A stretch of DNA of 64,000 bases from Candidatus Sabulitectum sp. GTDB lineage: Bacteria > Fermentibacterota > Fermentibacteria > Fermentibacterales > JCC-6. The stretch covers positions 23,274-87,273 of the forward strand of contig JAGLOJ010000044.1 in NCBI GenBank assembly GCA_023139045.1, in the 5' to 3' direction. The notes below the pieces were generated by a model, which saw nothing but the letters and a program-made list of their open reading frames with translations, was not told the DNA's origin and searched no databases. Each line of letters starts with the position of its first letter. The first letter of the stretch is position 1. The position numbers and the translations under genes were made by a program. Positions 29,913 to 63,780 of this stretch are shown here, in pieces.

Positions 29913-30038
29913 AATTCATTCCTCATGAAAAGGTTACAGATAAACATAGGAGCGAAAAGAAAGAAAACAAGGGGGGGTTGACACGATTGTACTACTTTGC
30001 TATTACAGTGGTACAATTTTGACAGAGGAGGAAATGTA

Positions 30039-31212: not shown

Positions 31213-31228
31213 GAAAGGAGTACCAGAC

Positions 31229-32029: not shown

Positions 32030-32041
32030 GAAGGTACAAAA

Positions 32042-32806: not shown

Positions 32807-32819
32807 GAAGGAGACTGGC

Positions 32820-33626
32820 ATGCTGAAAAAAGAAATAAAAGACACCCTGAAACAGACAGCTCTGGTTTTCAGTTTTATGCTGCTGATTCCAATTATTTTT
32901 GGTATCAATAATTTGAGATTTCCAGAAGAAGATCTTTCCTTTCTATGGTACATAGAGTGGGGTGTGAGTTACCTTATTTCTTTCCTGACTCTCTATCTGG
33001 CGTACAATATGTTTGCGTCAGAAGACTCTGATGGGGCATTGGATTACATAAGAAGTCTCCCTGTAAACAAATGGAAACTACTTGCTATCAAGATTCTTCC
33101 AAGGCTCGCTGTTACTCTGCTTCTTGTTTTTGCTTACAGATATCAGATTGAATACCGCTATACTCTTGGAGTGGCGGGAATTTCACAGAGTGGTATGCTT
33201 CTTTATCACTTCTCCTTTCTGCCCAACACAGGAATTTTCCTCATGATAATGATCGCAGGTTTCCTACTGGGAATATCAAACAGGAAGAATCCCTTTCTTG
33301 TTGTTGCCCTCGCAATGCCAGTGCTGTACATGATTCTCGGCAAGGCATCTCTTCCAGGACCAATGTATAGAAGTATTTATTATTGGTGGTATGGTCACTT
33401 TGGTTACATGTCCCACAATGTCTATCGTTCAATGATGTTCCTCTTTACTACTTTCCTTCAGGTCTACCTTCCATCAATACTATCATTCACAGTACTAATT
33501 CCAGTCTTCAATTCGTGGGATTGCTCTTCCGGAAGAATCAGAAGTCAGAGGATTCTAAAGCGAATAGCCGGTCCTCTGGGAATGATCATTGCTTTGTACA
33601 CAATCAGTAATTTCCGTTTTCTGTAG
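32820..33626 (+). CDS. ABC-2-type permease, paralog 3 of 4
   Basis: Same conserved N- and C-terminal motifs. It is closest to paralog 1. Confidence 0.7.
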   Translation: MLKKEIKDTLKQTALVFSFMLLIPIIFGINNLRFPEEDLSFLWYIEWGVSYLISFLTLYLAYNMFASEDSDGALDYIRSLPVNKWKLLAIKILPRLAVTLLLVFAYRYQIEYRYTLGVAGISQSGMLLYHFSFLPNTGIFLMIMIAGFLLGISNRKNPFLVVALAMPVLYMILGKASLPGPMYRSIYYWWYGHFGYMSHNVYRSMMFLFTTFLQVYLPSILSFTVLIPVFNSWDCSSGRIRSQRILKRIAGPLGMIIALYTISNFRFL

Positions 33627-33638
33627 AAAGGAGCTGGA

Positions 33639-34388
33639 ATGCTGAAAAAAGAAATCATGGATACTCTGAAGCAGACAGGAGCAATTTTAAGTTTCATGCT
33701 GCTGATTCCAGTAATACACCAGGTTAATGAGATCAGGCTGGGTGGTACTTCGTCTCTAGGTAACTATTTCATAAAAGGTGCATCACTGAATTTTATGTTA
33801 CTTATTGTCGGACTTGCATATATGATGTTCTCATCTGAAGATAATGATGATGCAATGGAGTATTTGAAATCTCTGCCTGTCTCAAAGTGGGAACTGCTCA
33901 ATATAAAGATACTTCCAAGGCTTGCAGTTCTATCTGTTCCCATACTGGGTTTTACTATTTTCTCTGCTCTAACGGCTCCTTCCGACATAACCGATTACTT
34001 CTTTCTGTTGGTAGCGCCAGTTGCACTTACAGTAATAATTGCTCTGATCTCCGGATTCTTCCTGGGAATATCAGACAGGAAGAATCCGATTCTTATAGGA
34101 GCAATGACCCTTCTTTCTTCATATCCAATATTCCTCGGATCCATTATTGTGCATAGAATTTCTCGATACATCGTTCACCAGACCCAAGCAGAAATCCCTC
34201 TCTACTTATACGCTCTTGTGCACTTTGTAACTGTAACGATCCCTGTATTGATCCCGTTGTGTCTTCTCATCCCAGTTTACAGATCATGGGATTGCAGATC
34301 CGGAAAAGTTAGAAGCCAGGCTATCCTGAAACGACTGGCAGTTCCTTCAATCCTGATTGTAATACTCTGGGGAGTACTTTCACCCTGA
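33639..34388 (+). CDS. ABC-2-type permease, paralog 4 of 4
   Basis: Same conserved N- and C-terminal motifs (MLKKEIMDTLKQT... and ...SWDCRSGKVRSQAILKRLAVP). Confidence 0.7.
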   Translation: MLKKEIMDTLKQTGAILSFMLLIPVIHQVNEIRLGGTSSLGNYFIKGASLNFMLLIVGLAYMMFSSEDNDDAMEYLKSLPVSKWELLNIKILPRLAVLSVPILGFTIFSALTAPSDITDYFFLLVAPVALTVIIALISGFFLGISDRKNPILIGAMTLLSSYPIFLGSIIVHRISRYIVHQTQAEIPLYLYALVHFVTVTIPVLIPLCLLIPVYRSWDCRSGKVRSQAILKRLAVPSILIVILWGVLSP

Positions 34389-34430
34389 TAAATCTTAAAG
34401 GCAGACTTAATCGACAACAAGGAGAAGTTA

Positions 34431-35567
34431 ATGAAAATGAAGCAGGAATTGATTCTTTTTACAGTTACGGCAGCAATCTTTTCGGGATGCGGAGAAAGCC
34501 CGCCGGAAGAAGTATCTGTAATAGAAACAGTGGAAGAAGTACCGGTTATACCCGATTCTGTGGCACAGTGGATTGAGTGGGCGGAAGAAAGCGGAGACGG
34601 GCTCTGGGAAGATGGCAGCCACAGGTTCATTCTGAAAGAATCCCTTGTTTACGGCGGACAGGAAATACCGCCTTTCTTCAATGTTGAAGGATTCGACTTC
34701 AAGGGTGATACACTGTTTGTAAGCGATCCTGCGGACCAATCTCTTGCTGCTGCCTCACTTACAACCGGAGAGCAGATCTGGAAAGTGGGGGAACAGGGAG
34801 GGGGGCCCGGGCATTTCAACGGTATCTGCGAAATTGCAGCAGGATCTTCCCGAATCGCTGTATGCGACATGGGCAACAACAGAGTTTCACTATTGAACTT
34901 TTCCGGTGAGTTTCTTACCGAAATTTCTATCCAGTGCCCGTTCGATGTCATGTGGAAAGGTGATACTTTATTTGTTCTCAGTCTTGCCGAAAGCAAACCT
35001 CTGAACATGTACAATGCAGATGGTGAGTTTCTTGACTCGTGCGGTGAATTGCCGGAAGAATTGGATATGCTTGCTTATTCAAACAGGCACCTCCACGGGG
35101 TAGTGGCTCCGAACGGTCATGTACTGGTTATTTCACGATTCCTTGCCGGAATATGGAAAATTGATCCTGCCACTGGTTCAACTGAATTGTTTTCTGAAAT
35201 TTCATTCCCCCAGGGTGAAATGGTAAATGATATTGCCAGTGGGTCATTTATGGTTCTCTCCAGAGACATCTTCATCGGCCCTGACGGAATGGTAAATGTG
35301 ATACTGCCTGTTTTCTCTGAAAATGGCGGGCCATTGTCTGACGGTAGTGAAATGCTTAAAACAACCGCAGTTCACAGGTACAACTGGGATGGTGAGTATC
35401 TGGACAGCTGGGTAATCGATGGTACTGTGGGTGTTGTGCTGATGCACAACGGGCAACTCTTCTCCGCAGACAGATATGCTGACGGTGTTGTAATTGATCA
35501 CGGTGTAATTCCGCTGAATCGGAGTGCAGAGCATGATATGAACGATGTGAGGTCGCAGTCCACATAA
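34431..35567 (+). CDS. NHL-repeat / six-bladed beta-propeller lipoprotein
   Basis: Lipobox FSGC. NHL-like repeats are present (GDTLFVSDPADQS...GGGPGHFNGICEIAA...IAVCDMGNNRV). It is a paralog of the genes at 57145 and 62689. Confidence 0.65.
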   Translation: MKMKQELILFTVTAAIFSGCGESPPEEVSVIETVEEVPVIPDSVAQWIEWAEESGDGLWEDGSHRFILKESLVYGGQEIPPFFNVEGFDFKGDTLFVSDPADQSLAAASLTTGEQIWKVGEQGGGPGHFNGICEIAAGSSRIAVCDMGNNRVSLLNFSGEFLTEISIQCPFDVMWKGDTLFVLSLAESKPLNMYNADGEFLDSCGELPEELDMLAYSNRHLHGVVAPNGHVLVISRFLAGIWKIDPATGSTELFSEISFPQGEMVNDIASGSFMVLSRDIFIGPDGMVNVILPVFSENGGPLSDGSEMLKTTAVHRYNWDGEYLDSWVIDGTVGVVLMHNGQLFSADRYADGVVIDHGVIPLNRSAEHDMNDVRSQST

Positions 35568-35779: not shown

Positions 35780-36019
35780 ATGCAAACAATCATTAAAAAA
35801 TGGGGAAACAGTCTTGCCGTGAGGATTCCGAAGGCAATTGCCGAAGATCTTCGCATCGAGAACAATTCAAAGGTTGAACTCTATACCGAAAATAATTGTC
35901 TCGTGGTTAAATCGATAGAAATTGAATACAGCTTAACTGAACTTCTCTCAAAGGTGACTGAGGAAAACCTGCACAAGGAGATTGATACTGGAAGAAGTGC
36001 AGGGAGGGAAGAATTGTAA
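35780..36019 (+). CDS. mazE: MazE/AbrB-type antitoxin
   Basis: IIKKWGNSLAVRIPKAIAEDL is a SpoVT/AbrB swapped-hairpin motif. Size is 79 aa. Confidence 0.75.
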   Translation: MQTIIKKWGNSLAVRIPKAIAEDLRIENNSKVELYTENNCLVVKSIEIEYSLTELLSKVTEENLHKEIDTGRSAGREEL

Positions 36020-36039: not shown

Positions 36040-36341
36040 TTGGTCTGGATTTCCTTTGACCCTCAGGCTGGCCACGAGCAAGATGGAAGAAGACCTGCAC
36101 TGGTTCTATCACCGAAAGAATACAATGCCAGAGTTGATCTTGCTCTTTTGTGCCCTGTCACATCCAGAATAAAGGCTATCCATTTGAGGTTCTTCTTCCG
36201 AAAAGCTGTCTTATTACAGGTGTTGTACTATCCGATCAGGTAATAAATCTTGATTGGCGGGCAAGAAATGCAGAGATTGCAGACAGGGTACCAGATTCAA
36301 TACTTCATGAAGTTCTATGTAAACTTGGAACATTGCTGTAA
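36040..36341 (+). pseudogene. mazF: MazF/PemK-family toxin interrupted by a +1/-1 frameshift near 36150-36240
   Basis: Frame 1 gives GELVWISFDPQAGHEQDGRRPALVLSPKEYN...CPVTS. Frame 3 continues as KGYPFEVLLP...GVVLSDQVINLDWRAR...LHEVLCKLGTLL. Joined together, these make a complete MazF. Confidence 0.6.
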
Positions 36342-50426: not shown

Positions 50427-51809
50427 TCATTTAATCTGCTGAAACAGTCTTGGAAGTTGCTCAATCAAATACAACGGCAGAGAGAGTAAATCACATTCAA
50501 CCTGCACAGTCGCGCCGGCTTGAGCAAGCCCGTGACTTATGTGCTGTAGAGATGGCGGGTTAAGATCGAAACGCACCGCTCTGGTGCATTTCTTCTGAGA
50601 AACAAACTGAAGTAGAGATTTTAGAGATCCGCTTTTCCCCGCCTTCACTTCAACCGGCACTATTGACTGGTCAAGCTGAATCAGGAAATCAACCTCTGCA
50701 TTTGCCGTTCTTCCCTCTCGCAACCAGTATGTAAGTGATTTAAAACCGGATGTTCTACCCATACTGCAAAGATGCTGGGCAATAAACTGTTCGGTGATTT
50801 TTCCCCTATTTATAAATGAAACAGTCTGTAACTCCTCCAGCGATATTCTGGTAACTCCGCACATGTGATTAACTAAACCGCAATCCAGAAAGTAGGGCTT
50901 GAATATGCGTTCATTAATTGTTGCTCCCAAAGGCAATCCCGACCCATCAGTGTGGTATGTCTTCACTATCAACTGGGCTTTCACCAGCAACTCAAGCGCT
51001 GTACGAACATCCCGCGCATGTGAATCAGGGCTGACTCGGAAATACTTGAACTTTTCACCAATTCCACGGGGCACATACTCAAATATCCTGTGGATCATCT
51101 GCAAAGCAGACCTGCGGGAATACTTGGCAAAGTCGTCCTTGTATGTCTCAGTGATAGAGGCATGAACATCTGTCACCTGGCTGAAATCCTCACCTGATTC
51201 GATGTACCGCTGTACAGCTTCAGGCATGCCTCCTGTAAGAAAATACTTCCTCTGCAGATCCAGAAGCCGGGCATGGGCTGTACCTGGAAAATCATCGCCA
51301 ATCTGATGCGTTCTCAAGAGGGCAAGAAGATCATCCTGAGACATTGCCTCAAGTACTTCTTCAAAACTCATAGGATAAAGGAAAAGGTATTGTATTCTAC
51401 CCACAGGCATTGAAATACTGTGTTTTGCCAGAGTAAACTCCAGAAGAGAACCAGCTGCAATCAGAGGGATATGAGGATGCTCCTCAAAGAAGTAGCGCAA
51501 AGATTGAATTGCTTCGGGAATGGCTTGAATCTCATCCAGAAATATGAGATCTTTTCCGGTGCGAATACTGCCTTTTCCGCAGAGATATTCCAACTCCTGG
51601 ATGATTCTACCAGGATCATTTGTTTTAAACACAGAAACTAGAGTGGGATGCCGCTCCAGATTGACTTCATGTAAATTAAGACCATTCTTTTCTGCGAATT
51701 GCCGAACCAGAGTTGATTTCCCAACCTGTCTTGCGCCGTGAATCACAAGTGGCTTTCTGGATGATGCTCCCAGCCAGCGGAATAGATTTTTCTCAGCAAA
51801 GCGTTTCAT
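50427..51809 (-). CDS. AAA-family ATPase with a DUF4143-type C-terminal domain (COG1373)
   Basis: P-loop IHGARQVGKSTLVRQ and Walker B LIFLDEIQ. Size is 460 aa. Confidence 0.7.
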   Translation of the reverse strand: MKRFAEKNLFRWLGASSRKPLVIHGARQVGKSTLVRQFAEKNGLNLHEVNLERHPTLVSVFKTNDPGRIIQELEYLCGKGSIRTGKDLIFLDEIQAIPEAIQSLRYFFEEHPHIPLIAAGSLLEFTLAKHSISMPVGRIQYLFLYPMSFEEVLEAMSQDDLLALLRTHQIGDDFPGTAHARLLDLQRKYFLTGGMPEAVQRYIESGEDFSQVTDVHASITETYKDDFAKYSRRSALQMIHRIFEYVPRGIGEKFKYFRVSPDSHARDVRTALELLVKAQLIVKTYHTDGSGLPLGATINERIFKPYFLDCGLVNHMCGVTRISLEELQTVSFINRGKITEQFIAQHLCSMGRTSGFKSLTYWLREGRTANAEVDFLIQLDQSIVPVEVKAGKSGSLKSLLQFVSQKKCTRAVRFDLNPPSLQHISHGLAQAGATVQVECDLLSLPLYLIEQLPRLFQQIK

Positions 51810-52223: not shown

Positions 52224-53576
52224 TCAATATCCAAAAGCCTGGGCCCCAGCAGGAGCATCTTCATTTCTCAGTAGCCACTTCCATGCTGGAATTATATCTA
52301 TCTTACCACTGTATGTTTCAATTGTTTCTTCATCATGAAGAGAAATGACAGTACTCTTTGAAAGCTTCAGCTCTTCCATTGCCTCACTAAGTGCCCGAAT
52401 TTCTCGATTTCGAGTTTTCAAGTTTGTTAAGTCTGCACAAACTTGGATGAGTTCAAAAACAGTGTTTGTTTCCGGATCACCTGTAATGAAATCAACTTCA
52501 TGTTTGCTGTTAGTGATATAGTAACTGATCGAGGCATCACGACGGAAGTAAAATCGTTTTCGCAGATTCAGAAAAACACAGTTTTCTAGTCTCGATCCCA
52601 GATTTGAGACTCCAGCAGATGAGACAGAAAAAGACAAACCTGGATCGATGGTGTAGATCTTCCTGGGGTTAACCTCTCTAACTCTTAAAGATCTGTTGAA
52701 TACAGAAATTGGAAACAAAAGAAAAGCGTCCTCAAAATGTGCAACAAGGTTATACAGCATTTCTTTACCTACTGAGATTCCTCTTGATTTGAAATCGTAA
52801 AAAACTCTATTAACTGAAAACAAGGAACCAGAGTTTTGCAGAAGCATTCGGGCGAAAGATCTAACTGCATTGATATTCTTTATTGAGTACCGCTCAATAA
52901 TGTCTCTTACTAAAACCAGCTCAACATAATCCTGTAAAACTTGATTTCTTTGATAATCATTCATTGATTGAATCCCTGGAAAACCACCCTGGTCAAGATA
53001 CTTCTTGAATAGATCCTCCATATCAAAAACTGTTTTACCCGGAGGATATTCTGGTGGCAGTTCTATTTCATGGAAAAGCAGGAATTCTTCAAAACTCAAC
53101 GGAAACAGCTCCCTTGCAAATCCCCTTCCTCTGAATTCAGTTGCCACTTCTGTAGAAAGCAATTTTGCTGAAGAACCTGTAACATAAAGACTGGCACTGG
53201 GATTATCCGTTATCCTCCGGGCGAATCGACTCCATCCTGAAATACTCTGAATCTCATCTAAAAACAGATGAAAGCTTCCCTCCCTGGCTTGTGGACTAAT
53301 CCGAAAGAAAGCATCCAGCAGATCTGACAGAATCCCAGATCCGTATGGATGTAATCTGTCGTCTTCAAGATTCAAGTATAAAATCGTTGAAGGATCCACT
53401 CCTTCTGAAATCAGTTTGTTTATGTGTTGAAACAATCGAAAAGTTTTACCTGTTCGCCTCATTCCAATAATAACCGAGGCCATGCCAGCCACTGGACTGA
53501 TATCCAAAATGCGAGGCCTGAGATCAGGAATCGGCCGAAACAACGAATCTGCTACGAATTGTTCTATGTGATTCAC
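52224..53576 (-). CDS. AAA-family ATPase with a DUF4143-type C-terminal domain (COG1373), a divergent paralog
   Basis: P-loop GMRRTGKTFRLFQ and Walker B HLFLDEIQ. Size is 450 aa. Confidence 0.7.
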   Translation of the reverse strand: MNHIEQFVADSLFRPIPDLRPRILDISPVAGMASVIIGMRRTGKTFRLFQHINKLISEGVDPSTILYLNLEDDRLHPYGSGILSDLLDAFFRISPQAREGSFHLFLDEIQSISGWSRFARRITDNPSASLYVTGSSAKLLSTEVATEFRGRGFARELFPLSFEEFLLFHEIELPPEYPPGKTVFDMEDLFKKYLDQGGFPGIQSMNDYQRNQVLQDYVELVLVRDIIERYSIKNINAVRSFARMLLQNSGSLFSVNRVFYDFKSRGISVGKEMLYNLVAHFEDAFLLFPISVFNRSLRVREVNPRKIYTIDPGLSFSVSSAGVSNLGSRLENCVFLNLRKRFYFRRDASISYYITNSKHEVDFITGDPETNTVFELIQVCADLTNLKTRNREIRALSEAMEELKLSKSTVISLHDEETIETYSGKIDIIPAWKWLLRNEDAPAGAQAFGY

Positions 53577-53884: not shown

Positions 53885-54133
53885 GAATCGGGATCAATTC
53901 AAGCCTTGCTGGATACCGATCTTTCTTCACGCAAATCAGAAACAGGCAGAAACAAGACCACAACATTAATTTCGCTATATTTCAGGTATGCCGGTTTATT
54001 TATTTGTAGTTCTTCTTTCCCCTATACCAGAATACGAGTTTTACATATTTTGCCTATCAAGCTCCATTCAGATTCAAGTAGAAGCCGTTTGCAGAGTAGA
54101 TCTGAATTGAAAAACAGCAGTACCACTTCCAAC

Positions 54134-55825
54134 ATGAGGAAACTCTGGCAAGACCGCAGGCTGCTTTTTCGCACCCTGACATTCCTCAAGCCATGGCTCA
54201 AATGGCATGCTCTTGGGCTTTTCCTCACAATTCTGGCTGCTGGTCTTGCTCTGGTTCAACCCTGGGTGACCAGGCTTCTTATTGATAAGGTTCTAATAGA
54301 TGGCAATACAGACCTGCTTCTTAAAATCTGCTTTGCCTATTTAGGAGCTGTACTTCTTGGTTCCCTCGTAGGTATGGCAATGTCGATTCTGTTCTCCTGG
54401 GTTGGCCAGAGCGCAGCAATAGACTTGAAGATGGCCCTGTACAAAAAGTTGAATACCCTGTCCATGGCCTTTACCGGCAGGAAAAGGGTGGGAGAACTGA
54501 TGGCGGGGTTTACCAGTGATATCCCCGTTATGCAGAGTTTGTACTCTTCAACCCTTTCAAGTACAATCAGTGAGGTAATCAGGTTCTTCGTAGTACTGGC
54601 AGTAATGATTTCTATTAACCCGCGACTTACCCTCCTGGCTGTACCATCCATTCCCCTGTTCGCCATAATTATTGCATTGGCAGGAACCATGCTGAAAAAG
54701 GCCAGTGCTGAAGTTCAAGAGAAAAGAGCTTTCTTCACTGCTACGCTTCAGGAACAGCTTTCAGGTCTCCGCACATCTGCTGCCTTCAATCTTGAGAACC
54801 GGGAAAGCGTTAAGTTCAAGAACTCCATGACAGATCTTATGCACTCAAGTATTCGCCTTACAGTTAAAGGCTTTGTAATGAATGCCGGTTCCCTGCTGGC
54901 ATCAACTACTCTCATTCTTGTGATATGGCTGGGTGGAAAAGAAGTAATTCAGGGCAGGATGGACGTTGGTGTACTGATTGCTTTCATCAGCTATTTCGGT
55001 ATGCTGTTTGGCCCTGTAGGCTCCATTGCCGGAATCGCCACACAGATTCTGAAAGCTATGGGTGCCGCAGAGAGGGTATTCACAGTCATAGATACAGAAC
55101 CCGCCGTGACAGAGCTTCCCGGTGCAGCAGAACTCACTGGTGTTAAGGGTAAGGTTGAATTCAAAAACATCAGTTTTTCCTACTCGGAAGAGTCTCCAGT
55201 TCTGAAGAATTTCAACGAGGTTATCCATGCAGGTGAAACAGTAGCCCTGTCCGGTGACAGCGGATCAGGCAAAACCACTCTGATATCTCTGTTGCTCCGT
55301 TTCTTCGATCCGGATAGCGGTGAAATTCTGATTGATGGAAACTCAACAAAAAACTTCACCCTTGAATCCCTCAGGAGAAACATCGGCGTGGTTTTTCAAG
55401 ATCCGTTCCTTTATCACTGTTCCGTGGCACAAAACATTCTTCTTGGCAGTCCTGAAGCATCAATGGACGAAATTGAAAAAGCGGCAAGGGCAGCCCATGC
55501 CCATGAGTTCATCACAACCTTGCCTGATGGTTACGATACTCTTGTCGGGGAACGGGGCAGCAGTTTATCCGGTGGGCAGGTTCAGAGGCTTGCCCTTGCC
55601 AGAGTATTCCTGAAGGATCCACCCATCGTTGTACTTGATGAAGCCACCAGCGCGCTTGACAGTAAAAGCGAGTCCAAAATACAGGATGCTGTTTCTCATC
55701 TTTTACAGAGCAGAACATGCCTTGTTATTGCTCACAGGCAATCTACTGTGGAGTCTGCTGACAGGGTAGTATCAGTTCCGCTTTTATCGGGCAATAACGA
55801 CATTACTCCCCTTGCTGCCAAATGA
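54134..55825 (+). CDS. ABC exporter, a fused transmembrane domain and ATPase (MsbA-like). The start is chosen at MRKLWQ.
   Basis: Six-TM ABC transmembrane domain, Walker A LSGDSGSGKTTLISLL, signature LSGGQVQRLALAR, and Walker B IVVLDEATSALD. Confidence 0.85.
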   Translation: MRKLWQDRRLLFRTLTFLKPWLKWHALGLFLTILAAGLALVQPWVTRLLIDKVLIDGNTDLLLKICFAYLGAVLLGSLVGMAMSILFSWVGQSAAIDLKMALYKKLNTLSMAFTGRKRVGELMAGFTSDIPVMQSLYSSTLSSTISEVIRFFVVLAVMISINPRLTLLAVPSIPLFAIIIALAGTMLKKASAEVQEKRAFFTATLQEQLSGLRTSAAFNLENRESVKFKNSMTDLMHSSIRLTVKGFVMNAGSLLASTTLILVIWLGGKEVIQGRMDVGVLIAFISYFGMLFGPVGSIAGIATQILKAMGAAERVFTVIDTEPAVTELPGAAELTGVKGKVEFKNISFSYSEESPVLKNFNEVIHAGETVALSGDSGSGKTTLISLLLRFFDPDSGEILIDGNSTKNFTLESLRRNIGVVFQDPFLYHCSVAQNILLGSPEASMDEIEKAARAAHAHEFITTLPDGYDTLVGERGSSLSGGQVQRLALARVFLKDPPIVVLDEATSALDSKSESKIQDAVSHLLQSRTCLVIAHRQSTVESADRVVSVPLLSGNNDITPLAAK

Positions 55826-55976: not shown

Positions 55977-57152
55977 TTGCCAGAGATGAAAATTGATTAT
56001 TATCTGCTTGCCGTAAGTACCTTACTGCTTTCCTGCAGTAAAGGGTATGAAGAGATGGATCCGGTCGCCTATCAGATAATTGAAAATCCTTCGGAAGTCA
56101 CTGTTGAACAGATAGCTGATATTCCATACATGTTTGCACATGATGGTTTGTTAATTCCTGGCAGCATTGATTCCTCTGATGATGTTATAGTTCTGGGGTT
56201 CTGTGGTGATTCTACGACTGCCGGTATATCAGCTTATGACTGGGAAGGAAAACTGCTCTGGTCAACAGAATATGGTACATATGGATATGCCTCAGCCGTA
56301 TGTGTTGATGGAAACAGGGTACTCTTTTCTGTTACTGATGAGATTCCGGTTCTTGATTCTGCCACAGGTGAAATGATTGAAACAATCAGCGCAGAAGGGC
56401 TCAGTGATATTCTTGTACTACCCGAGGCACCCGATGGACAGTCTATGCCAGACTTTAGACTCGCTCAGGGGATGGAAATACAAAGCGAGATTATGCTCTG
56501 GAATAAGCCGGAGTGTGATTTAAATTTCTCATATTGTGGATTCTTATCTGATTTGCACTGTTCCTTCCAAAGGTATCTCAGGGTTACACGAATCGATGGA
56601 TTATGGTATATCGGCATGACAGAGGGACATTACGAGCGCCTCAGTATTTATAAGGTACCGGATTTCCAGCATTCATTGCGACCAAAGGTATTCGATATTG
56701 CTCTGACAGACACATCGGTCGTCGCTATTCTTTCGTTTAGAGACATGGTGATGGAGTTTGCTTTTGATGGCAGGCTTATCAGAACGACATATTTTGGTCA
56801 TGAGCTTGAAGGTCCTATAAGTTTCACATACGACAGTTTTATGGGTAGTACAATTTTCAGGTATTTAATCGCTGATATTGATACCGATGACGAAGGCTGT
56901 ATTTACCTGCTTTACTCCGGTTACGGGGTTGGTCAAAACGGTAACGCCGAGATTTGGAAGGTGAATACTGTTTCCCTTACTGCTTCTATGGCCAGGCTGG
57001 ACCATTCCGCAGTGGCTTTCACGATTTGCGGCAGCAGAGCGGCCGTTGTGGAGCAGCAGCATGAGCCTGGCGAGGGTGATGAAATAGTATTAACCGGAAC
57101 CCCTTCGATTCATGTTTATCAGATAGAATGGGAGGACAGTACAAGTGTCTGA
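55977..57152 (+). CDS. Beta-propeller-like lipoprotein, a distant paralog of the NHL lipoproteins
   Basis: Lipobox LLSC. Composition is beta-rich. Its end overlaps the next lipoprotein gene. Confidence 0.55.
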   Translation: MPEMKIDYYLLAVSTLLLSCSKGYEEMDPVAYQIIENPSEVTVEQIADIPYMFAHDGLLIPGSIDSSDDVIVLGFCGDSTTAGISAYDWEGKLLWSTEYGTYGYASAVCVDGNRVLFSVTDEIPVLDSATGEMIETISAEGLSDILVLPEAPDGQSMPDFRLAQGMEIQSEIMLWNKPECDLNFSYCGFLSDLHCSFQRYLRVTRIDGLWYIGMTEGHYERLSIYKVPDFQHSLRPKVFDIALTDTSVVAILSFRDMVMEFAFDGRLIRTTYFGHELEGPISFTYDSFMGSTIFRYLIADIDTDDEGCIYLLYSGYGVGQNGNAEIWKVNTVSLTASMARLDHSAVAFTICGSRAAVVEQQHEPGEGDEIVLTGTPSIHVYQIEWEDSTSV

Positions 57153-58257
57153 TTCTTCTATTTTCTTCCTGCTGTGCATTATTCTTTGTACTGCCGGGCT
57201 ATCTTGCCAGTCAAATGTTGACAGCGATGTTTCCGTTTGCGAAGAACTGATCGAGTGGAGAGAATGGCTCGAAGCGTCCAGTCCTCCTGAAGTAGAAACT
57301 GACATGCCGTTTTACATTCCTTCCGATACGATACTGTCACCGGAGACGTGTGAGTATGAGTATTTCATGATAGAGAGTTTTGTGATTGATGACAACAGGA
57401 TATTTCTCAGCGATGGAAAATCCAGCACTCTTCTAGCTTTTAGCTTTGATGGGGAACTTCTCTGGAAAACCGGTGGCAAGGGAGAGGGTCCCGGTCTCTT
57501 CAGTGGTATAGGGAATATAGCCTGCAAGGGTGATACTCTCGCAGTATGTAATCATGCTGTAGGTCGCGTAGATTATTTCGACTGTAACACTGGTGAGTGG
57601 ATATCATCCATATCAATACTATGGCCGTATGACCTTTGTTTTCTTCCGAATGGTAATCTGGTTGTTGTAAGTCTAATGCAGAATGATCTTGTTACAGTAT
57701 TTACGCCATCAGGGGAAAAAGTTTTTAGCTCAGGTTCATGGAATGCACCAGGAGAGGAAGCCTTCCATTTTTTGTTCTCAGCAGGCAACAGGAATATGCG
57801 TTCAACTCTCGTATGTGACAGCGTACTGGCGGTCAATTCCTATTTTTATAACTGGTGTCAATTATACAATACCAACTCTGGAGAATTGATCAATGCGTTC
57901 AAACGTGAACTGCCTTTTCCCGAAATGGAGTTTGAAGAAATAAACGGGGTGTTTGTCGGGAAAATCTATGCAATTGATATTGCGTCGTTCGGGAGTATGA
58001 TTGCGATTTTACATAGGCCTCCAGAGGATAGTTGGGATATTTCATCAAGGTATGATGAAATTCCTTTTTATGAAATCGATTTTGCAATGGTTGATATCTG
58101 GGATACTGAAGGAGAGTACATAGGCAGTTTTGCCTTCCCTCGTGGGGTAGGACGTATCCTCTGGCACGATGGAATAATGTACGGTGCAACTGATGGGTCA
58201 GGAGAGCTGATTCGATATACTGAGATCACTTTCGATTCAGAAAGAAATCTGGAGTAA
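57145..58257 (+). CDS. NHL-repeat / six-bladed beta-propeller lipoprotein
   Basis: Lipobox GLSC. The motif block DNRIFLSDGKSSTLLAFSFDGELLWKTGGKGEGPGLFSGIGNIACKGDTLAVCNHAVGRV is parallel to those in the 34431 and 62689 proteins. Confidence 0.65.
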   Translation: MSDSSIFFLLCIILCTAGLSCQSNVDSDVSVCEELIEWREWLEASSPPEVETDMPFYIPSDTILSPETCEYEYFMIESFVIDDNRIFLSDGKSSTLLAFSFDGELLWKTGGKGEGPGLFSGIGNIACKGDTLAVCNHAVGRVDYFDCNTGEWISSISILWPYDLCFLPNGNLVVVSLMQNDLVTVFTPSGEKVFSSGSWNAPGEEAFHFLFSAGNRNMRSTLVCDSVLAVNSYFYNWCQLYNTNSGELINAFKRELPFPEMEFEEINGVFVGKIYAIDIASFGSMIAILHRPPEDSWDISSRYDEIPFYEIDFAMVDIWDTEGEYIGSFAFPRGVGRILWHDGIMYGATDGSGELIRYTEITFDSERNLE

Positions 58258-59007
58258 ATTCTGAAGTTTCCTGGGTTCTCAACCTTGGGAACGGTGTTCT
58301 GGCCCATGGTACAAGTTTTCCTCCAGCAGCAAATGTATGTCCGAAGCAGCCACCAAGACAGTACCTAAACAAATCACACTGTGAATCTCGGTAAATCGTC
58401 TGTCTGTTGCTGTCAGCATACCTTACATCGTGTAAGACCGAAAAATTTTCCCACGACCTGACACAGAGAAGGAACAGAGGGTCCAGTCGCTTTCGCAGAT
58501 CATCTATAGTCTGCTGTAAATCGCACATTCATCACTTCTTTTGTGTCTGATTTCATAATTACGGATCTGCCGTGTTTTTTCTCTTGATTCTTTCCCAATC
58601 ACGAGTTTCTTCCACCCAGGCAGCTCACCAAACAATTTGCTGCACACAACTTCTCCCCGGGAATCATTCATAATTACTGCTTTATCAATCTCTCTTTTAA
58701 CCCCATCGTAGTAGAGCAGATAAACTGGTTCTATCTCCAGCATCGCCGGGAACTTCACCTGAACCGGTGTCAACGGTTGGTTAAATTTTCCGATATCATA
58801 AAACCCTGTATATCCTGTGCCATGAATTGTACATATTGCAGTTTCGATTTAGAGCCTCAATTCCTCTCTTTGTTGAAATCAATCATTCTTCCCTGAATTC
58901 GGAAACAGCAGAATCAAGACAACAGCATCAATTTCGTTATACTTTAAAGGATGTCGATTTATTTATAAATCCTCTTTCTCAATATCAGAATGTGAGGTTT
59001 ACATCTT

Positions 59008-60102
59008 TTGCCAGTCAAAACCCGTTCAGAAGCGCTATTATTAACAGTAATTATCTCAATGCTCTGTATGCTGGCATGCGATTCAGCGACCGAAATGAGT
59101 GTTGTGGAACAAAGGCATCTTGTAGTTGTTGATTCAATTGGATCACTGTATGGGAATGATTATGAAATGTTCGGAAATATAAATGGTGCTTATTTTGTTG
59201 ATGATTCTACATTCGTTGTCCTGGACAAGGGGTACAATGAGTTGCGTGTTTTTGATAGAGAATGCAATTTCATAAAGACTGTTAATTGTCAAGGAAATGG
59301 TCCTTGGGAGTGTCAGGATGCAGCATATTTGTCTTCACTTGACAATACTATAGCTGTATTTGAATTTCTCATGCCACCAAGAGCTGTATTTTTTGATAGT
59401 GCAGTTAATCCCAAACGCTCAGTTGTTCTATCTGGATACACTGCTTTAATGGAACCATCGTTAGTGGATTCATTAACAATCATTGGGAGTGTCGGAAGTT
59501 TTTCAGAACAAAATGGGAATCAATTCGCCGGTATTGATGTGTGCTCTTGGAGCACAATAACAGGTGAAAAGTTATGTGAATATTTCTCAAATTCGATTCA
59601 AATAGATTCTAGAGAAGGTTTATACAGTAGACTGGTCAGCTTAGAACTCACTATTGCTGCATCAAGTAGCGGTTATGTATACGTAGCCCCAAGTAAGAAT
59701 GATTACAAGATTCTTATATACTCATCAGAAGGAATGTTGATAGATTCAATTTATCAAACTCACGAACGCGCAATGCGAAGTCAGGAGGAGATACTAGCAG
59801 AGTGGGAGTGGCGAAAATTGAGAGATATTCATTTGGGAGATTGGATACCATCTGAATACGAACTTGAGGTTACGCAACTTCAAGTTCAAGATTCATTAAA
59901 GTACTTGTGGGTCAGTCATGGATCATATTTCAATCCATCATTTGATGTATTTAACCTACTTGGTGATTTAGAATTTACATGTACTGTTGAAGGATTGCCA
60001 GAAAATGAGATTATTCGATTTGGAATAAATGACAATGGCATATTGGCGTACACTGATTACTGTGCTACTTATCCAAGATTGTATATCCTGGAATTTCGAT
60101 AG
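59008..60102 (+). CDS. Beta-propeller-like lipoprotein paralog. The gene is visibly AT-richer than the rest of the window.
   Basis: Lipobox MLAC. The motif YFVDDSTFVVLDKGYNELRVFDRECNFIKTV follows the NHL-like blade pattern. Confidence 0.55.
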   Translation: MPVKTRSEALLLTVIISMLCMLACDSATEMSVVEQRHLVVVDSIGSLYGNDYEMFGNINGAYFVDDSTFVVLDKGYNELRVFDRECNFIKTVNCQGNGPWECQDAAYLSSLDNTIAVFEFLMPPRAVFFDSAVNPKRSVVLSGYTALMEPSLVDSLTIIGSVGSFSEQNGNQFAGIDVCSWSTITGEKLCEYFSNSIQIDSREGLYSRLVSLELTIAASSSGYVYVAPSKNDYKILIYSSEGMLIDSIYQTHERAMRSQEEILAEWEWRKLRDIHLGDWIPSEYELEVTQLQVQDSLKYLWVSHGSYFNPSFDVFNLLGDLEFTCTVEGLPENEIIRFGINDNGILAYTDYCATYPRLYILEFR

Positions 60103-60189
60103 CGTAATCCTGCCTTGCCAAAGTAAATCTAGAGTTTCGCTTGACTGTGGGCTCAGGAATCAGACATTCACGGGTGTACCGTCCTGACC

Positions 60190-60292
60190 TCTCTCATCTT
60201 TGCAGAACATGCCTTGTTATTGCTCACAGGCAATCTACTGTGGAGTCTGCGGACAGAGTAGTATCAGTTCCACTGTTATCGACTATCGGCGC
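60190..60292 (+). repeat. Duplicated 3' fragment of the ABC exporter gene. It is a copy of 55697..55795.
   Basis: The fragment is tctcatcttt...cagaacatgccttgttattgctcacaggcaatctactgtggagtctgc.gacag.gtagtatcagttcc. It encodes RTCLVIAHRQSTVESADRVVSV and has only a few mismatches against the source. Confidence 0.8.
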
Positions 60293-60357
60293 AGTCACAG
60301 GTCTGAGTTGAACCGCCATCAATGACCTCCGAAGTAGTTCACTGATCAATTCTTGAT

Positions 60358-61104
60358 TCATTGATCAGATCGATTGAGTTTCATAAGAGAAGCTGTAATC
60401 AGAAAAGCACTCCAAAGAAATGGATAGATATTTTGTGCAATCCCGCTAAAGTTGGGTAGCTCTCCTATGATTTCAATTCCGGAAGACGGGGGGGGAAGGT
60501 GTCCTGCTGCGACATTACTGTATCCAATTCCAACAGGAAACAATGCGTTGCATACTGTTTTTGCTATTGCAGGATTCGAACCCAGAGAACTCCTGAAGAA
60601 GACAATTAGCGTAATAATAGGAAAAACAATATTGAAAGCCGGGAAAAACTTGTTATGAAAAAATGAGTTGCCAGCAATTGAAAATGCTGCCAATGCGATG
60701 GTTACCTGAATGATTCCAAATGCGGCTAAAAATAAATCAGCGGGAAAGTAGCCAGAGTACAATGGAAAGATCAAGCATGGTACGAAAAAAAGAATCACCG
60801 CCACAACAAGCCCCACTTGGGTAAGTTTGACAAACAGATCAAAATAGTATTTTTGCCTGCTCACTGGTGCAGTCACCCACATACGAATTCTTCCGCTTTG
60901 CAGTTCTTCGCCAATGCTCTTGTAAGTTGTTACCGAAAAGTAAAAAGAAAGGGCAAATATTACTGCAAACAACTGCCCGCCAATACCCAGATAGCAGCCT
61001 TCACTGCCTGCGCGCAAATCCATACCAACAGCAAGGAACATCAAAAGTGAATACCAGATTAGAGTCCCCAGCACGGAACTCCGGGTGTTTCTACGCCCCA
61101 GCAT
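60358..61104 (-). CDS. ABC-2-type permease, locus 2, second permease
   Basis: Six-TM protein. The motif RMWVTAPVSRQKYYF is shared with its neighbour. Confidence 0.6.
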   Translation of the reverse strand: MLGRRNTRSSVLGTLIWYSLLMFLAVGMDLRAGSEGCYLGIGGQLFAVIFALSFYFSVTTYKSIGEELQSGRIRMWVTAPVSRQKYYFDLFVKLTQVGLVVAVILFFVPCLIFPLYSGYFPADLFLAAFGIIQVTIALAAFSIAGNSFFHNKFFPAFNIVFPIITLIVFFRSSLGSNPAIAKTVCNALFPVGIGYSNVAAGHLPPPSSGIEIIGELPNFSGIAQNIYPFLWSAFLITASLMKLNRSDQ

Positions 61105-61808
61105 CAGTACCCTCTCTTATTTACCGCAACGAGAAGCACGCCAAAAACTCCCAGAGACCATAATGTGATATATAAAAAGTCTGACATCGTAATCACCGAT
61201 GGACTGATCAGCGGGAATACGCCATTGTACACAGATCGAATCCCGATTGCAATGGGCATTATGCTGTAAAGGACTCTCTTATGCTGCTGCATAATACCAG
61301 GGTCCAGCTGCATTACCAATAATATCCATGGGATAAATATCATTAAGGGAAGAGATAGATTCCCTCTGACTGATATGGAAACAAGAAATACAAACAAAAC
61401 CAGTACCACTGTTGTTGAGGCAACACCTCCTACTATCAAAAAGTAATTGACGGGGAGCATTCGATACTTCAGAAAGAAAAGCAAGACAACGATAGCAGCC
61501 CAGATAGTACTGCTCAGAACTACCCTTAGCAGTATCTTTTTGATGCTGGAGATGAACAGTTGTGCTTTAGATACTGGAGCAGTAACCCACAACCTCATAC
61601 GATTTGTGCTGATTTCCTCGTTGAACATAGAACTCACAAGAGAAGCGGTATAAGAAACAAAAGCCAGCATTACTATTTCCTGCAAAAATGCAAGAGATGA
61701 CGGATGCCTGCTGGATAAAACCTTAAATAACAATGCAGCGGAATACAGAAGAAAAAAGAACATTACAATCACCCTGTGCTTTTTATCGAGACTTCTGCTG
61801 AGCATCAT
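61104..61808 (-). CDS. ABC-2-type permease, locus 2, first permease
   Basis: Six-TM protein with the motif RLWVTAPVSKAQLF. It overlaps the ATPase gene stop. Confidence 0.6.
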   Translation of the reverse strand: MMLSRSLDKKHRVIVMFFFLLYSAALLFKVLSSRHPSSLAFLQEIVMLAFVSYTASLVSSMFNEEISTNRMRLWVTAPVSKAQLFISSIKKILLRVVLSSTIWAAIVVLLFFLKYRMLPVNYFLIVGGVASTTVVLVLFVFLVSISVRGNLSLPLMIFIPWILLVMQLDPGIMQQHKRVLYSIMPIAIGIRSVYNGVFPLISPSVITMSDFLYITLWSLGVFGVLLVAVNKRGY

Positions 61809-62647
61809 TGACCAACCGTTGCAAAGTAGAAGTCTTCCATGGTTACCGAAGAGACAGTGCTGTAATCAATTGGAAAGCTGTTCAGTGTCTGTTTTTCAAT
61901 AATGACAAAAGAATCGAAACTGAAACTAACCTTAGACTCTGGTATGTTCAATTCCTGCTGTATTTTTCTGGATAGTTTCCGGTAGTTTGAGAGAGATTCA
62001 AACTCTCCGGTGGCTATATTTCGTCCATCATGAATTATAAGGAAATTGCCCTGGTGCATTTCTACTTCATGCACCCTGTGCGTACTCTGCAGCACGGTAG
62101 TACCGGACTCGCAGAGCGTCTTTATCCGCTTCCGAACCTTTCTGATATTTATAGGATCCAAACCCTCCAATGGCTCATCCAGTATCAGGAATTCTGGTTT
62201 ACCGGAAAGCATCAGGGAAAGGAGCATCAACTGTTTCTCTCCTTTTGATTTCCCCTTATAGTACTGGTTGAGAAGATCCTCGCAGCCAAAATAATCGAAC
62301 ATGTCAGCTACATCAGAAAAGTTAATATCTTCTCTGTACCGCCCATACTCCTCAGTCATATCGGCAGTATTGCAATATACCGGCAGAATCACAGACTCAG
62401 GAAGATACCTTACAAACTTACGGGATTCAGGTTTCCGGCAGTCCACACCATTAATTAGAATAGTTCCACTGTCAGCAGAAATCAGATTCATTGCGATATT
62501 CATCAGGGTGGATTTACCCGCTCCATTACTCCCGAGAAGAATAGTGTTTTCACCTTTTCTTATATCACAGGAAAAGCCCTCGCGAAGACCTCTTGTTCTT
62601 CCGTAATACTTTTTCAGGTTTTCAGTTCTCAAGGCAAATCCACTCAT
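61805..62647 (-). CDS. ABC transporter ATP-binding protein, locus 2
   Basis: Walker A LGSNGAGKSTLMNI, signature SKGEKQLMLLSLML, and Walker B FLILDEPLEGLD. Confidence 0.85.
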   Translation of the reverse strand: MSGFALRTENLKKYYGRTRGLREGFSCDIRKGENTILLGSNGAGKSTLMNIAMNLISADSGTILINGVDCRKPESRKFVRYLPESVILPVYCNTADMTEEYGRYREDINFSDVADMFDYFGCEDLLNQYYKGKSKGEKQLMLLSLMLSGKPEFLILDEPLEGLDPINIRKVRKRIKTLCESGTTVLQSTHRVHEVEMHQGNFLIIHDGRNIATGEFESLSNYRKLSRKIQQELNIPESKVSFSFDSFVIIEKQTLNSFPIDYSTVSSVTMEDFYFATVGQ

Positions 62648-62688
62648 AAATAAATCTCCAAGCTGTAAGCTGTCTCTAAGCTCCTTCT

Positions 62689-63780
62689 CTACACAAACGC
62701 TGGAATAATTTCATAAATCCTGATGAACCCTTCTAAGCAATCAATGGCATAAATGTAATCACCGTTGATTTCGATTGTACCGCAGCATGTTTCCGGGGCA
62801 AGAACCGTATCGCAATATCGCCCATCCAGTGTGTATCGGTCAATCAAACCGATACTGGCGATGCGAGGCATGTCGCCCCGGCAAGTACTCAGAGTTTTAT
62901 CAATGGTAACTACAGGTAAGAGAACATAAAGCAGACTATCCGAAGAACTGCAGATATCGTTGCAGTGTATATACAGTATCCCTCCTTCGTTAGCAGGAGG
63001 AGTCAGGGGAGTATTACGGAAAAAACTTGTTTCAATCTGCTCATTCTTTAAATCATAAATCGTTATAACGCTTTCGTAAAATGATCCCACTGCAATTCGG
63101 GAATCCGGTAATGGAGTCACATATAAATTTCGGTTAGAGTAAACCACATTCTGCTCAAGAGTTGTTTCCCACTCACCAAATGCATCAATTTTCTCAAGGG
63201 TAACAGTATGATACAGATTAATCAGTTTTCCCTCTGCAAGACTCAGTACCACCAATACGGTATCATTTACCACAGTCAGGTCGTATGGAGTAGCAATGCT
63301 GATATCGCCCTGATAATCTCCGTGCTTATCAAGCACCGTAATACGTGAGTTTTGTTGATTATTCACAAATACTCTGGAGTTTGAAACTGCAATATGGGTT
63401 ATTCCTGAAAAATGCCCCGGTCCTTCCCCAGGTTCTCCAAATTTCCAGATGAGTTCATTTGTAGCAGCATTCAAACAGACAACACTCTCTGTAGAAGAAT
63501 CAGTCACGAAAAGAGTGTCACCGGAAATTGCAATATCCACCGGGCTGTAAAACAATGCAAATGCATCTCCACCAAGTGTTGAAACTTCCCTGAGAACAAC
63601 CTGTCTCTCAGGACTGTTTACCCACAACCCCTCGTCACTTGCCTGAGCCCACTCCTTCCATACAGCTAATGTGTACTCAGCAAGTGAGGTGTTTCCGCCC
63701 TGCGCTCCGGCAAATTCAGCATCTGATGTACAGGACAAAATAGCAAATAAACAGGATAACAAATAAATAGGAAACTTCAT
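62689..63780 (-). CDS. NHL-repeat / six-bladed beta-propeller lipoprotein, the locus 2 partner
   Basis: Lipobox ILSC. The motif block GDTLFVTDSSTESVVCLNAATNELIWKFGEPGEGPGHFSGITHIAV is nearly collinear with the 34431 protein. Confidence 0.65.
   Translation of the reverse strand: MKFPIYLLSCLFAILSCTSDAEFAGAQGGNTSLAEYTLAVWKEWAQASDEGLWVNSPERQVVLREVSTLGGDAFALFYSPVDIAISGDTLFVTDSSTESVVCLNAATNELIWKFGEPGEGPGHFSGITHIAVSNSRVFVNNQQNSRITVLDKHGDYQGDISIATPYDLTVVNDTVLVVLSLAEGKLINLYHTVTLEKIDAFGEWETTLEQNVVYSNRNLYVTPLPDSRIAVGSFYESVITIYDLKNEQIETSFFRNTPLTPPANEGGILYIHCNDICSSSDSLLYVLLPVVTIDKTLSTCRGDMPRIASIGLIDRYTLDGRYCDTVLAPETCCGTIEINGDYIYAIDCLEGFIRIYEIIPAFV

Follow-up and report, generated by a model that had tools for sequence, protein, structure and literature searches.

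The interval 55977–60102 of an uncultured Fermentibacterota genome contains three lipoprotein genes (B, C and D) whose products are NHL-type six-bladed β-propellers, predicted from a Sec signal and lipobox to be exported and anchored to the membrane. They belong to three anciently separated subfamilies, so that what looked like a lineage-specific expansion of paralogs is a set of old subfamilies united by rearrangement. B and C are a conserved pair that appears to stem from a radical SAM/SPASM peptide cassette. The preliminary description of this DNA had missed both this origin and a pseudogene remnant of the enzyme between C and D; in the window (the whole 64 kb stretch analysed) the cassette itself is a ruin. 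D is a compositional outlier and probably a later insertion. Two further family members, A and E, lie in ABC-2 transporter loci on either side of the interval. The genes concerned are as follows.

55986–57152, plus strand: B, lipoprotein, divergent six-bladed NHL-like propeller, invariably paired with a C-type gene that lies 3′ of it
57145–58257, plus strand: C, lipoprotein, NHL/DUF5128 propeller with a GKGEGPGLF motif
59008–60102, plus strand: D, lipoprotein with a six-bladed NHL propeller, from another subfamily; its composition is atypical and it was probably inserted later
29997–35567, plus strand: locus 1, with a short GntR regulator, an ABC ATPase, four ABC-2-like permeases and lipoprotein A (34431–35567)
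60358–63780, minus strand: locus 2, with lipoprotein E (62689–63780), an ABC ATPase (61805–62647) and two ABC-2-like permeases (61104–61808 and 60358–61104), assigned with Pfam and NCBIfam

Fold and relationships of the lipoproteins

The three genes had been recognized as such in the preliminary description, and B starts at 55986 in the public annotation of the source contig. A–E are predicted lipoproteins of about 360–390 residues; in each, a hydrophobic N-terminal signal precedes the lipobox that had been claimed. The PROSITE PS51257-type pattern is matched by A, B, C and E, with the cysteine at residue 17–21, and the MLAC lipobox of D (Cys24) misses the strict pattern solely through a cysteine at position −4. 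Of 14 D homologs, all of which read [A/S]C, at least 90% retain Cys24, and the lipobox cysteine is conserved to the same extent (at least 90% of homologs) in B and C.

The AlphaFold2 model of D (pLDDT 87.9) has six blades and matches the Brat NHL domain in Foldseek with an E-value of 2e-12. The models of D and B both superpose best on the NHL domains of Brat, TRIM and Mei-P26, with six four-stranded blades closing into a ring. Sequence profiles agree with this assignment for C and D: the C/E/A family profile matches the TRIM3 NHL domain at 1.4e-21 and the D family profile matches NHL domains (Thin NHL) at 1.6e-11. C also scores 24 bits against PF17170 (DUF5128; cut-off 22.9), which D, E and A individually do not reach. 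The NHL-like signature reported earlier for C, GKGEGPGLFSGIGNIA, occupies residues 111–126, and the C/E/A alignment shows no variation in its G-x-G-P-G-x-F core. B belongs to no Pfam or NCBIfam family and its profile gives no NHL match, the NHL/DUF5128 signal being undetectable in its sequence; it is a six-bladed NHL-like propeller by its predicted fold. A protein that previously had no family annotation thus gains a fold and, as described below, a fixed partner.

The description of the five proteins as paralogs holds to different degrees for its members. Searching the whole window with the A–E proteins (tblastn) returned no extra copies or fragments, so five is the full count. A, C and E are clear paralogs (BLAST identity 27–32%, E-values 1e-21 to 1e-46). 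D has no direct BLAST link to these three and is joined to the family through a DUF5128 intermediate (P0014; E-value 5e-20), by hhalign (82%, E-value 1e-5) and by its NHL profile matches. The sequence link for B is weak (hhalign 57%, E-value 1e-4) and is complemented by fold and gene order. All five represent subfamilies that separated long ago, and each of these has orthologs of its own in other genomes.

This divergence bears on the earlier suggestion of a recent local expansion of one surface-lipoprotein family under diversifying selection, for instance in nutrient capture, as phage receptors or for variation in immunity. Five members within 64 kb, three of them adjacent, could give that impression, and paralog clusters also occur in relatives (e.g. 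L099, L104, L118 and L119). However, paralogs that share no more than 32% identity or escape BLAST detection, in subfamilies with separate orthologs in other genomes, largely refute recency, and the pairwise dN/dS values against L085, which are gene-wide measures only, are 0.14 for B and 0.18 for C. Orthologs of both genes are under purifying selection. Recent expansion with diversification is therefore very unlikely.

The B–C pair and its cassette

B and C constitute a conserved, usually overlapping two-gene unit. B lies directly 5′ of C in the window and in L085, L086, L092, L093, L094, L115, L117, L118 and L119. The start of C overlaps the stop of B by 8 nt in the window, L085, L094, L115, L116 and L117, and the genes are 3 nt apart in the others. 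Orthologs of C in Candidatus Sabulitectum/Aegiribacteria genomes are 73–85% identical, the range that B orthologs also reach, whereas no D ortholog above 51% was found.

Intact cassettes containing the pair were seen in two short metagenome contigs only (L092 and L117). Their order is a Cys-rich precursor (CX3CX3CG...CG), a radical SAM/SPASM enzyme, B and C, followed in L092 by an ABC exporter. The precursor was assigned from two ORFs, one per contig; over 1.73 Mb in six frames, the motif CX3CX3CG-X(5-16)-CG occurs only just 5′ of these two radical SAM genes. The L092 enzyme matches Pfam Radical_SAM (2.6e-21) and SPASM (6e-8), and its closest NCBIfam models are ScmE (4e-38) and StsB (1e-34), all far under cut-off.

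Between C and D, the window carries the following traces of this enzyme.

58226–58528, minus strand: radical SAM/SPASM pseudogene remnant (matched part 58301–58453), with the C-terminal SPASM motif C-x5-C-x3-C kept
58504–58773, minus strand: 89-residue ORF, a gene in the public annotation, with no Pfam, NCBIfam or PDB match

The remnant was found with the L092 enzyme as a tblastn query against the whole window, where residues 382–432 align at 47% identity (E-value 5e-12); searched alone, it has no Pfam or PDB match. These 51 residues run convergently with C, opposite to the orientation seen in the intact cassettes; the 89-residue ORF may be their frameshifted continuation. Neither an intact radical SAM core (CxxxCxxC) nor a precursor homolog or precursor motif match is present in the window. 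Comparable traces occur elsewhere: a radical SAM remnant directly upstream of B in L115 and an exporter remnant directly after C in L116 and L090. Each of the three B–C clades includes a radical SAM-linked member or a remnant. The pair also follows ABC-2/A operons directly, with no radical SAM trace, in L085, L118 and L119, so that it may simply be mobile. L118 and L119 are orthologous to locus 1 and carry B–C between A and mazEF, whereas the window has no pair at that position.

Composition and surroundings of D

That D is AT-rich was noted earlier and is borne out. Its GC content is 0.375 and its GC3 0.290, against window means of 0.461 and 0.458 (z −2.5 and −3.3), both the lowest among 50 ORFs. 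Its synonymous codon choice, conditioned on the amino-acid sequence, is likewise the most atypical of the 50 (z −4.7; next −2.9), and its dinucleotide signature is only moderately atypical (top 6% of tiles). D is also followed by a duplicated fragment of the exporter gene upstream of B, as had been described. The features around D are as follows.

58800–60150, no strand: low-GC segment (0.36–0.39 in a 300-nt sliding profile), comprising D and about 200 nt upstream
53906–55825, plus strand: MsbA-like ABC exporter with fused membrane and ATPase domains, source of the duplicated fragment
55694–55789, plus strand: copy 1, inside the 3′ coding region of the exporter, from the H-loop to near the C-terminus
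60192–60281, plus strand: copy 2, a 90-nt exporter gene fragment 3′ of D

The GC trough is confined to this segment, which sits where the 5′ two-thirds of the SPASM pseudogene are missing. Its nearest homologs share no more than 51% identity with D and occupy unrelated, non-syntenic sites. D thus appears to be inserted, since the low-GC segment takes up the place of the missing 5′ part of the pseudogene and the homologs of D are distant and placed elsewhere. Among the loci compared, none of which shows full synteny with the window, C is not followed by D in L085, L116 or L090, and the gene behind the exporter in L005 is a different one; in L115 the contig stops shortly after C.

The exporter itself (Pfam ABC_membrane 3e-47 and ABC_tran 4e-32; NCBIfam MsbA_rel 1e-127, below cut-off) has orthologs that are 93% identical in L005 (Candidatus Sabulitectum) and 86% identical in L006, with the same short C-terminus. 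Copy 2 is 95% identical to copy 1 over 80 nt; an alignment of 96 columns, which includes a single 6-nt gap, gives 90%. Copy 1 is the original because the tail that follows it (GNNDITPLAAK) is orthologous to that of L005; this ancestral tail is absent from copy 2. The four substitutions in the 80 nt are all synonymous in the exporter frame and three are derived on copy 2, which argues that the fragment comes from a once-functional, diverged exporter copy.

Alternatively, D could be native, with an AT-richness caused by relaxed or unusual selection (low expression or AT-rich regulation) and flanking fragments that are unrelated debris. Its reading frame is intact, and neither an integrase, transposase or tRNA (among called genes and ORFs) nor direct or inverted repeats bracket it, the sole repeat being the exporter fragment. 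A search for a donor found none, the best outside match being the 51% homolog, and homologs elsewhere also have a GC content 0–0.03 below their flanks (0.03 in L002 and L003). The deviation of D (GC −0.09, GC3 −0.17) far exceeds that of these homologs, however, the sharp edges of the trough coincide with the gene and its upstream region, and D occupies the place of a truncated gene and is missing beside C in the three relatives named above. A native origin consequently appears unlikely. Acquisition of D fits the outlier composition, the flanking rearrangement scars, the lack of synteny and the absence beside C in relatives. The earlier proposal of an insertion is supported to this extent; the fragment that helped to prompt it does not support a simple or very recent event.

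Possible function and comparison with known systems

In the history that we propose, B–C would originally have stood within a cassette of Cys-rich precursor, radical SAM/SPASM enzyme and exporter. Enzyme and exporter genes have decayed repeatedly in the Sabulitectum lineage while B–C stayed intact under purifying selection, leaving in the window only a C-terminal SPASM pseudogene fragment, and D would have been brought in by a later insertion or replacement from a donor of lower GC content. Gene neighbourhood suggests that the propellers probably act outside the cytoplasm as ligand-binding partners of ABC transporters, most plausibly binding or neutralizing exported, modified peptides. B–C would then be orphan immunity or receptor genes retained once the production genes had gone, and A and E may have the same role beside ABC-2 pumps. 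We regard this proposal as a whole (orphaned B–C from a decayed cassette, D as a later arrival and propellers as transporter partners) as evenly poised between right and wrong. The narrower suggestion that B–C represents an undescribed class of paired NHL-type lipoproteins, partners (as immunity proteins, receptors or subunits of a holo-complex) of a new CX3CX3CG...CG radical SAM/SPASM-peptide family in Fermentibacterota, with the Sabulitectum copies orphaned, is tentative and somewhat doubtful. Were it correct, an NHL-lipoprotein pair with a radical SAM/SPASM enzyme and a conserved Cys-rich small ORF could mark a new modified-peptide system in an uncultured phylum, and the keeping of accessory genes as biosynthetic genes decay may bear on the evolution of peptide-based antagonism or immunity.

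Among Foldseek matches are the propeller lipoproteins BtuG (E-value about 1e-7, TM-score 0.35–0.43), which could indicate surface-exposed nutrient capture feeding an outer-membrane transporter, as in Bacteroides. The six-bladed NHL domains rank far above these matches. Genes for TonB-dependent receptors adjoin none of the family members examined, whose neighbours are instead ABC exporters, ABC-2 pumps or radical SAM genes; such a role is extremely improbable.

PF17170 (DUF5128, '6-bladed beta-propeller') is an uncharacterized family of bacterial lipoproteins, which the present proteins resemble in the PF17170 score of C, the C/E/A and D profiles, the D and B models, size and lipobox. They differ in the obligate pairing of B with C and in the radical SAM/SPASM link, and the literature searched contained no paper on DUF5128 or on such a gene association.

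Like sactipeptide/ranthipeptide-type cassettes, L092 and L117 combine a Cys-rich small ORF with a radical SAM/SPASM enzyme, and in L092 also with an exporter. Their enzymes fall outside the named maturase families (far below NCBIfam equivalog cut-offs) and they differ in containing two NHL-type lipoproteins; the version in the window, with neither core nor precursor, is non-functional.

Quinohemoprotein amine dehydrogenase (qhpADCBEF) has a small, thioether-crosslinked Cys-containing subunit and a propeller subunit, together with a radical SAM/SPASM maturase and an ABC exporter without a peptidase; the B–C cassette assembles the same kinds of component. The propellers could by analogy be structural subunits of a periplasmic holo-complex, or else enzymes that tailor a modified peptide (NHL/PAL/lactonase-type). 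Here, however, a dihaem α subunit and a subtilisin-like protease were not seen, the propellers are NHL lipoproteins with six blades, and the top structure matches listed include no chain of this dehydrogenase. The invariant residues form NHL structural motifs and include no His triad or obvious catalytic set. B–C has moreover outlasted the radical SAM gene and exporter under purifying selection, which would hardly be expected of obligate partners unless these are encoded elsewhere. An enzymatic or subunit role is thus improbable, and partnership with transporters remains our preferred reading.

That reading finds its closest architectural parallels in immunity and export loci. The order of E and the ATPase is kept in L097, L098 and L100, with the permeases present in L097 and L100, and locus 2 has the I-F-E-G layout of LanI with LanFEG (SpaIFEG, or NisI with NisFEG), namely a lipoprotein, an ATPase and two ABC-2-type permeases. 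Its ATPase scores 98 bits on the lantibiotic-protection ATPase model TIGR03740 (cut-off 310). Locus 1 likewise resembles the PmtR-regulated Pmt ABC-2 exporter, with a short GntR regulator similar to PmtR (2.4e-14, below cut-off). The likeness to LanI and LanFEG is architectural only: lanthipeptide genes are absent, the permeases and lipoproteins of the loci have no NCBIfam match to the LanF, LanE/G or LanI families, the general searches brought up no resemblance in sequence to LanI, NisI or SpaI, and LanI proteins are not known to be propellers. Immunity genes are nevertheless known to outlive production genes, which would fit an orphaned B–C pair.

Gene layout and the lipoprotein family

The nearest genomes to the window are Candidatus Sabulitectum and Fermentibacteraceae metagenome-assembled genomes (MAGs). 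Its five lipoprotein ORFs, designated A–E, are arranged as follows, and tblastn with all five proteins identified no sixth copy of the family in the window.

34431-35567, plus strand: lipoprotein A
55977/55986-57152, plus strand: lipoprotein B
57145-58257, plus strand: lipoprotein C
59008-60102, plus strand: lipoprotein D
62689-63780, minus strand: lipoprotein E

B, C and D are flanked by an MsbA-like ABC exporter gene (53906-55825) and by the convergent locus 2 operon, which is ordered E, ATPase and two ABC-2-like permeases. Locus 1 comprises a short GntR regulator, an ATPase, four ABC-2-like permeases and, as its last gene, A. The run of one ATPase and four consecutive permease paralogs (30394-34388) is unusually rich in permeases, the third of which gives no significant Pfam hit. 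Promoter and terminator scans performed no better than on shuffled sequence, and Rfam gave no hit.

The exporter ends about 31 residues past its H-loop (IAHR) and seems to be without the strand and helix that usually close ABC ATPase domains at the C-terminus. Since its orthologs in two related MAGs (L005 2174-3982 and L006 10016-11722) are equally short or shorter, this is a trait of the lineage and not a truncation caused by insertion. Upstream of the exporter lie two DUF4143-type AAA ATPase genes (50427-51809 and 52224-53576); the GC3 of the downstream one (0.337) is the lowest but one in the window, and only fragments of this gene are left in the close relative L005.

The lipoboxes ascribed to these proteins in the preliminary description fit a PS51257-type pattern in A, B, C and E; that of D (MLAC) is off by one residue, its cysteine being conserved across homologs. 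The NHL-like motif quoted for C is present and is invariant in an alignment of C, E and A. These three proteins share 27–32% pairwise identity, C passes the Pfam DUF5128 model, and a profile of C, E and A matches solved NHL domains at 1e-21. BLAST gave no link between D and the other four lipoproteins. The homologs of D include a DUF5128 protein, P0014, which aligns over the whole length at 25% identity (E 5e-20), and the profile of D matches NHL domains at 1.6e-11 and aligns with the C/E/A profile at equivalent positions (hhalign, 82% probability); the AF2 model of D (pLDDT 87.9) has six blades and Brat NHL as its best match. All five thus count as propeller lipoproteins of the NHL type, and they are old subfamilies rather than recent duplicates. 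The earlier observation is confirmed and its interpretation partly supported: the fold, the paralogous relationship and the foreign appearance of D are upheld, a recent expansion and diversifying selection are not.

Searched by profile, a set of 1.84 billion representatives yielded 32,753 NHL-containing proteins; among the best 150 of these matches only a few tens are full-length relatives of about 360 residues. Literature searches on DUF5128, NVEALA/BF3164, SPASM with an NHL repeat, and radical SAM with propeller and lipoprotein returned nothing relevant.

The B–C pair and a radical SAM/SPASM cassette

B lies directly upstream of a C-type gene, with an 8-nt overlap or a 3-nt gap, in every comparison locus with enough sequence (L085, L086, L092, L093, L094, L115, L117, L118 and L119). 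In two contigs the pair is part of an intact cassette with a radical SAM/SPASM enzyme, the two enzymes being 46% identical.

L092 cassette: small Cys-rich ORF, radical SAM/SPASM enzyme, B, C, ABC exporter, 541-residue protein without an assigned family
L117 cassette: small Cys-rich ORF, radical SAM/SPASM enzyme, B, C
L092 269-430, upstream of the intact enzyme gene: candidate precursor peptide, MNDLTAIDLTQGMSGGGTDGEICFIKCTASCGQGVGNGQWGGCGQGVTDGDTC
L117 2786-2932, upstream of the intact enzyme gene: candidate precursor peptide, MTLKVDARELQAMVDDTDAMECIGWCSSKCGRRDGGGYTGICGDE

The L092 enzyme matches Pfam Radical_SAM (2.6e-21) and SPASM (6e-8), and its nearest NCBIfam models are ScmE and the sactipeptide maturase StsB, both far below cut-off. 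Both candidate precursors contain CX3CX3CG-X(5-16)-CG, which has no other occurrence in the six frames of the 1.73 Mb examined; the window holds no homolog of the candidate precursor. It does hold a trace of the enzyme, revealed solely by tblastn with the L092 protein.

58301-58453, minus strand: remnant of a SPASM C-terminus (51-residue match, 47% identity, E 5e-12)

This remnant lies inside ORF 58226-58528 and keeps a C-x5-C-x3-C motif. The 89- and 100-residue ORFs on the minus strand of the C–D interval matched nothing in Pfam, NCBIfam or the PDB, whether singly or joined. Comparable decay is seen elsewhere: L115 has a radical SAM remnant directly upstream of B, and L116 and L090 carry the C-terminal 49 residues of an L092-type exporter directly after C.

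What this adds to the earlier account is the recognition that B–C is probably an orphaned module of a radical SAM/SPASM peptide cassette, with a pseudogene remnant in the window. The B–C pairs form three clades, each with a radical SAM-linked member or remnant, and the most economical history is ancestral linkage to the cassette followed by repeated loss of enzyme and exporter. Alternatively, B–C could be a mobile module, as its position directly after ABC-2/A operons in L085, L118 and L119 would suggest. Locus 1 has its true orthologs in L118 and L119 (identities: ATPase 75%, permeases 63–77%, A 74–78%, mazE 62–67%), in both of which a B–C pair belonging to another clade separates A from mazEF and the mazF toxin gene is intact. 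In the window mazE comes immediately after A, with no B–C between.

35780-36019, directly after A: mazE antitoxin gene
36040-36243 and 36150-36341, after mazE: mazF/pemK toxin gene, broken in two by a frameshift

L085 was ruled out as a locus 1 ortholog, its ABC genes being 36–48% identical. In L086 (5155-8580) a TPR protein and two TldD/PmbA-family genes follow B–C, and L093 has the same arrangement; the TldD/PmbA protease family is known to process the modified peptide microcin B17.

Diversifying selection had been suggested for the lipoproteins. At ≤32% identity the five paralogs are too divergent for a meaningful dN/dS, and it was taken from orthologs, in which dS is saturated in all but the closest pairs. 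Against the L085 orthologs (75–77% identity) the values are 0.14 for B and 0.18 for C, as gene-wide measures at dS 0.7–1.1 that could mask local positive selection. Both are higher than those of the exporter (0.06) and AAA ATPase (0.08) against L005, and selection on B and C is clearly purifying.

Composition and history of lipoprotein D

The AT-richness reported for D is borne out: its GC (0.375, z −2.5) and GC3 (0.290, z −3.3) are the extreme of 50 ORFs, and its synonymous codon choice has a z of −4.7 in simulations keeping the amino-acid sequence, the next lowest ORF being at −2.9. The GC trough around it is sharp (about 58800-60150) and its dinucleotide signature is only moderately unusual (top 6% of tiles). 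Codon-usage fit is also low in C, B and both locus 2 permeases (z −2.1 to −2.9), and the whole 56–62 kb stretch (genes 55986-61808) is mildly atypical for the window.

The nearest homologs of D outside this organism are 42–51% identical, unlike the orthologs of B and C in related MAGs (73–85%). The arrangement around D in the window is repeated on a second contig. The outside homologs of D lie in contexts that have nothing in common with the window, and their GC differs from that of their own flanks by only 0–0.03.

L002 10001-11092 and L003 9545-10633: D homologs between rpsG (S7) and fusA (EF-G) in two Fermentibacterota MAGs
A D homolog adjoining a restriction-modification system and an IS1595 transposase
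D homologs clustered with A-like genes

In L002 and L003 the D-type gene, a nitroreductase and other genes interrupt the normally tight str operon.

The duplicated fragment noted beyond D is real, 60192-60281 (copy 2) being a copy of exporter segment 55694-55789 (copy 1), and is not a target-site duplication. Four substitutions in 80 nt separate copy 2 from the resident gene, each of them synonymous when read in the frame of the exporter; polarised against the outgroups L005 and L006, three of the four arose on the fragment lineage. Because copy 2 has its own synonymous changes and the ancestral exporter tail follows copy 1 and not copy 2, the fragment is what remains of another exporter copy that was once functional, either a paralog or an allele from a relative. 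Site-specific integration duplicating the exporter 3′ end was rejected on the same two observations.

A full-length minus-strand radical SAM gene ending at 58226 would extend to about 59600, and the low-GC segment with D, in opposite orientation, fills the space expected for it. No mobility gene or tRNA accompanies D, and no repeat brackets it. In our reading D probably entered by insertion or replacement once the radical SAM gene was already expendable, and the event need not be recent.

Possible function of the propellers

Members of the family repeatedly adjoin ABC transporters: A is the last gene of GntR/ABC-2 operons, type-1 exporters adjoin B–C in the window and in L092, and the order E–ATPase is found again at three other loci, permeases being present at two. 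B–C has also been kept under purifying selection where the production genes decayed. Together with an immunity-operon-like gene order, these features point, as the best-supported reading, to propellers that would be membrane-anchored, extracytoplasmic proteins, binding exported modified peptides or serving as their immunity or receptor partners. The propellers might instead be tailoring enzymes or part of a holo-complex like that of quinohemoprotein amine dehydrogenase; the invariant residues, however, show no evident catalytic set. No literature was found on DUF5128 or on an association of propeller lipoproteins with a radical SAM cassette.

Among known systems, the regulator of locus 1 resembles PmtR, the locus 2 ATPase gives a sub-threshold match to a lantibiotic-protection model, and the gene order of locus 2 is that of lipoprotein-plus-FEG immunity operons.
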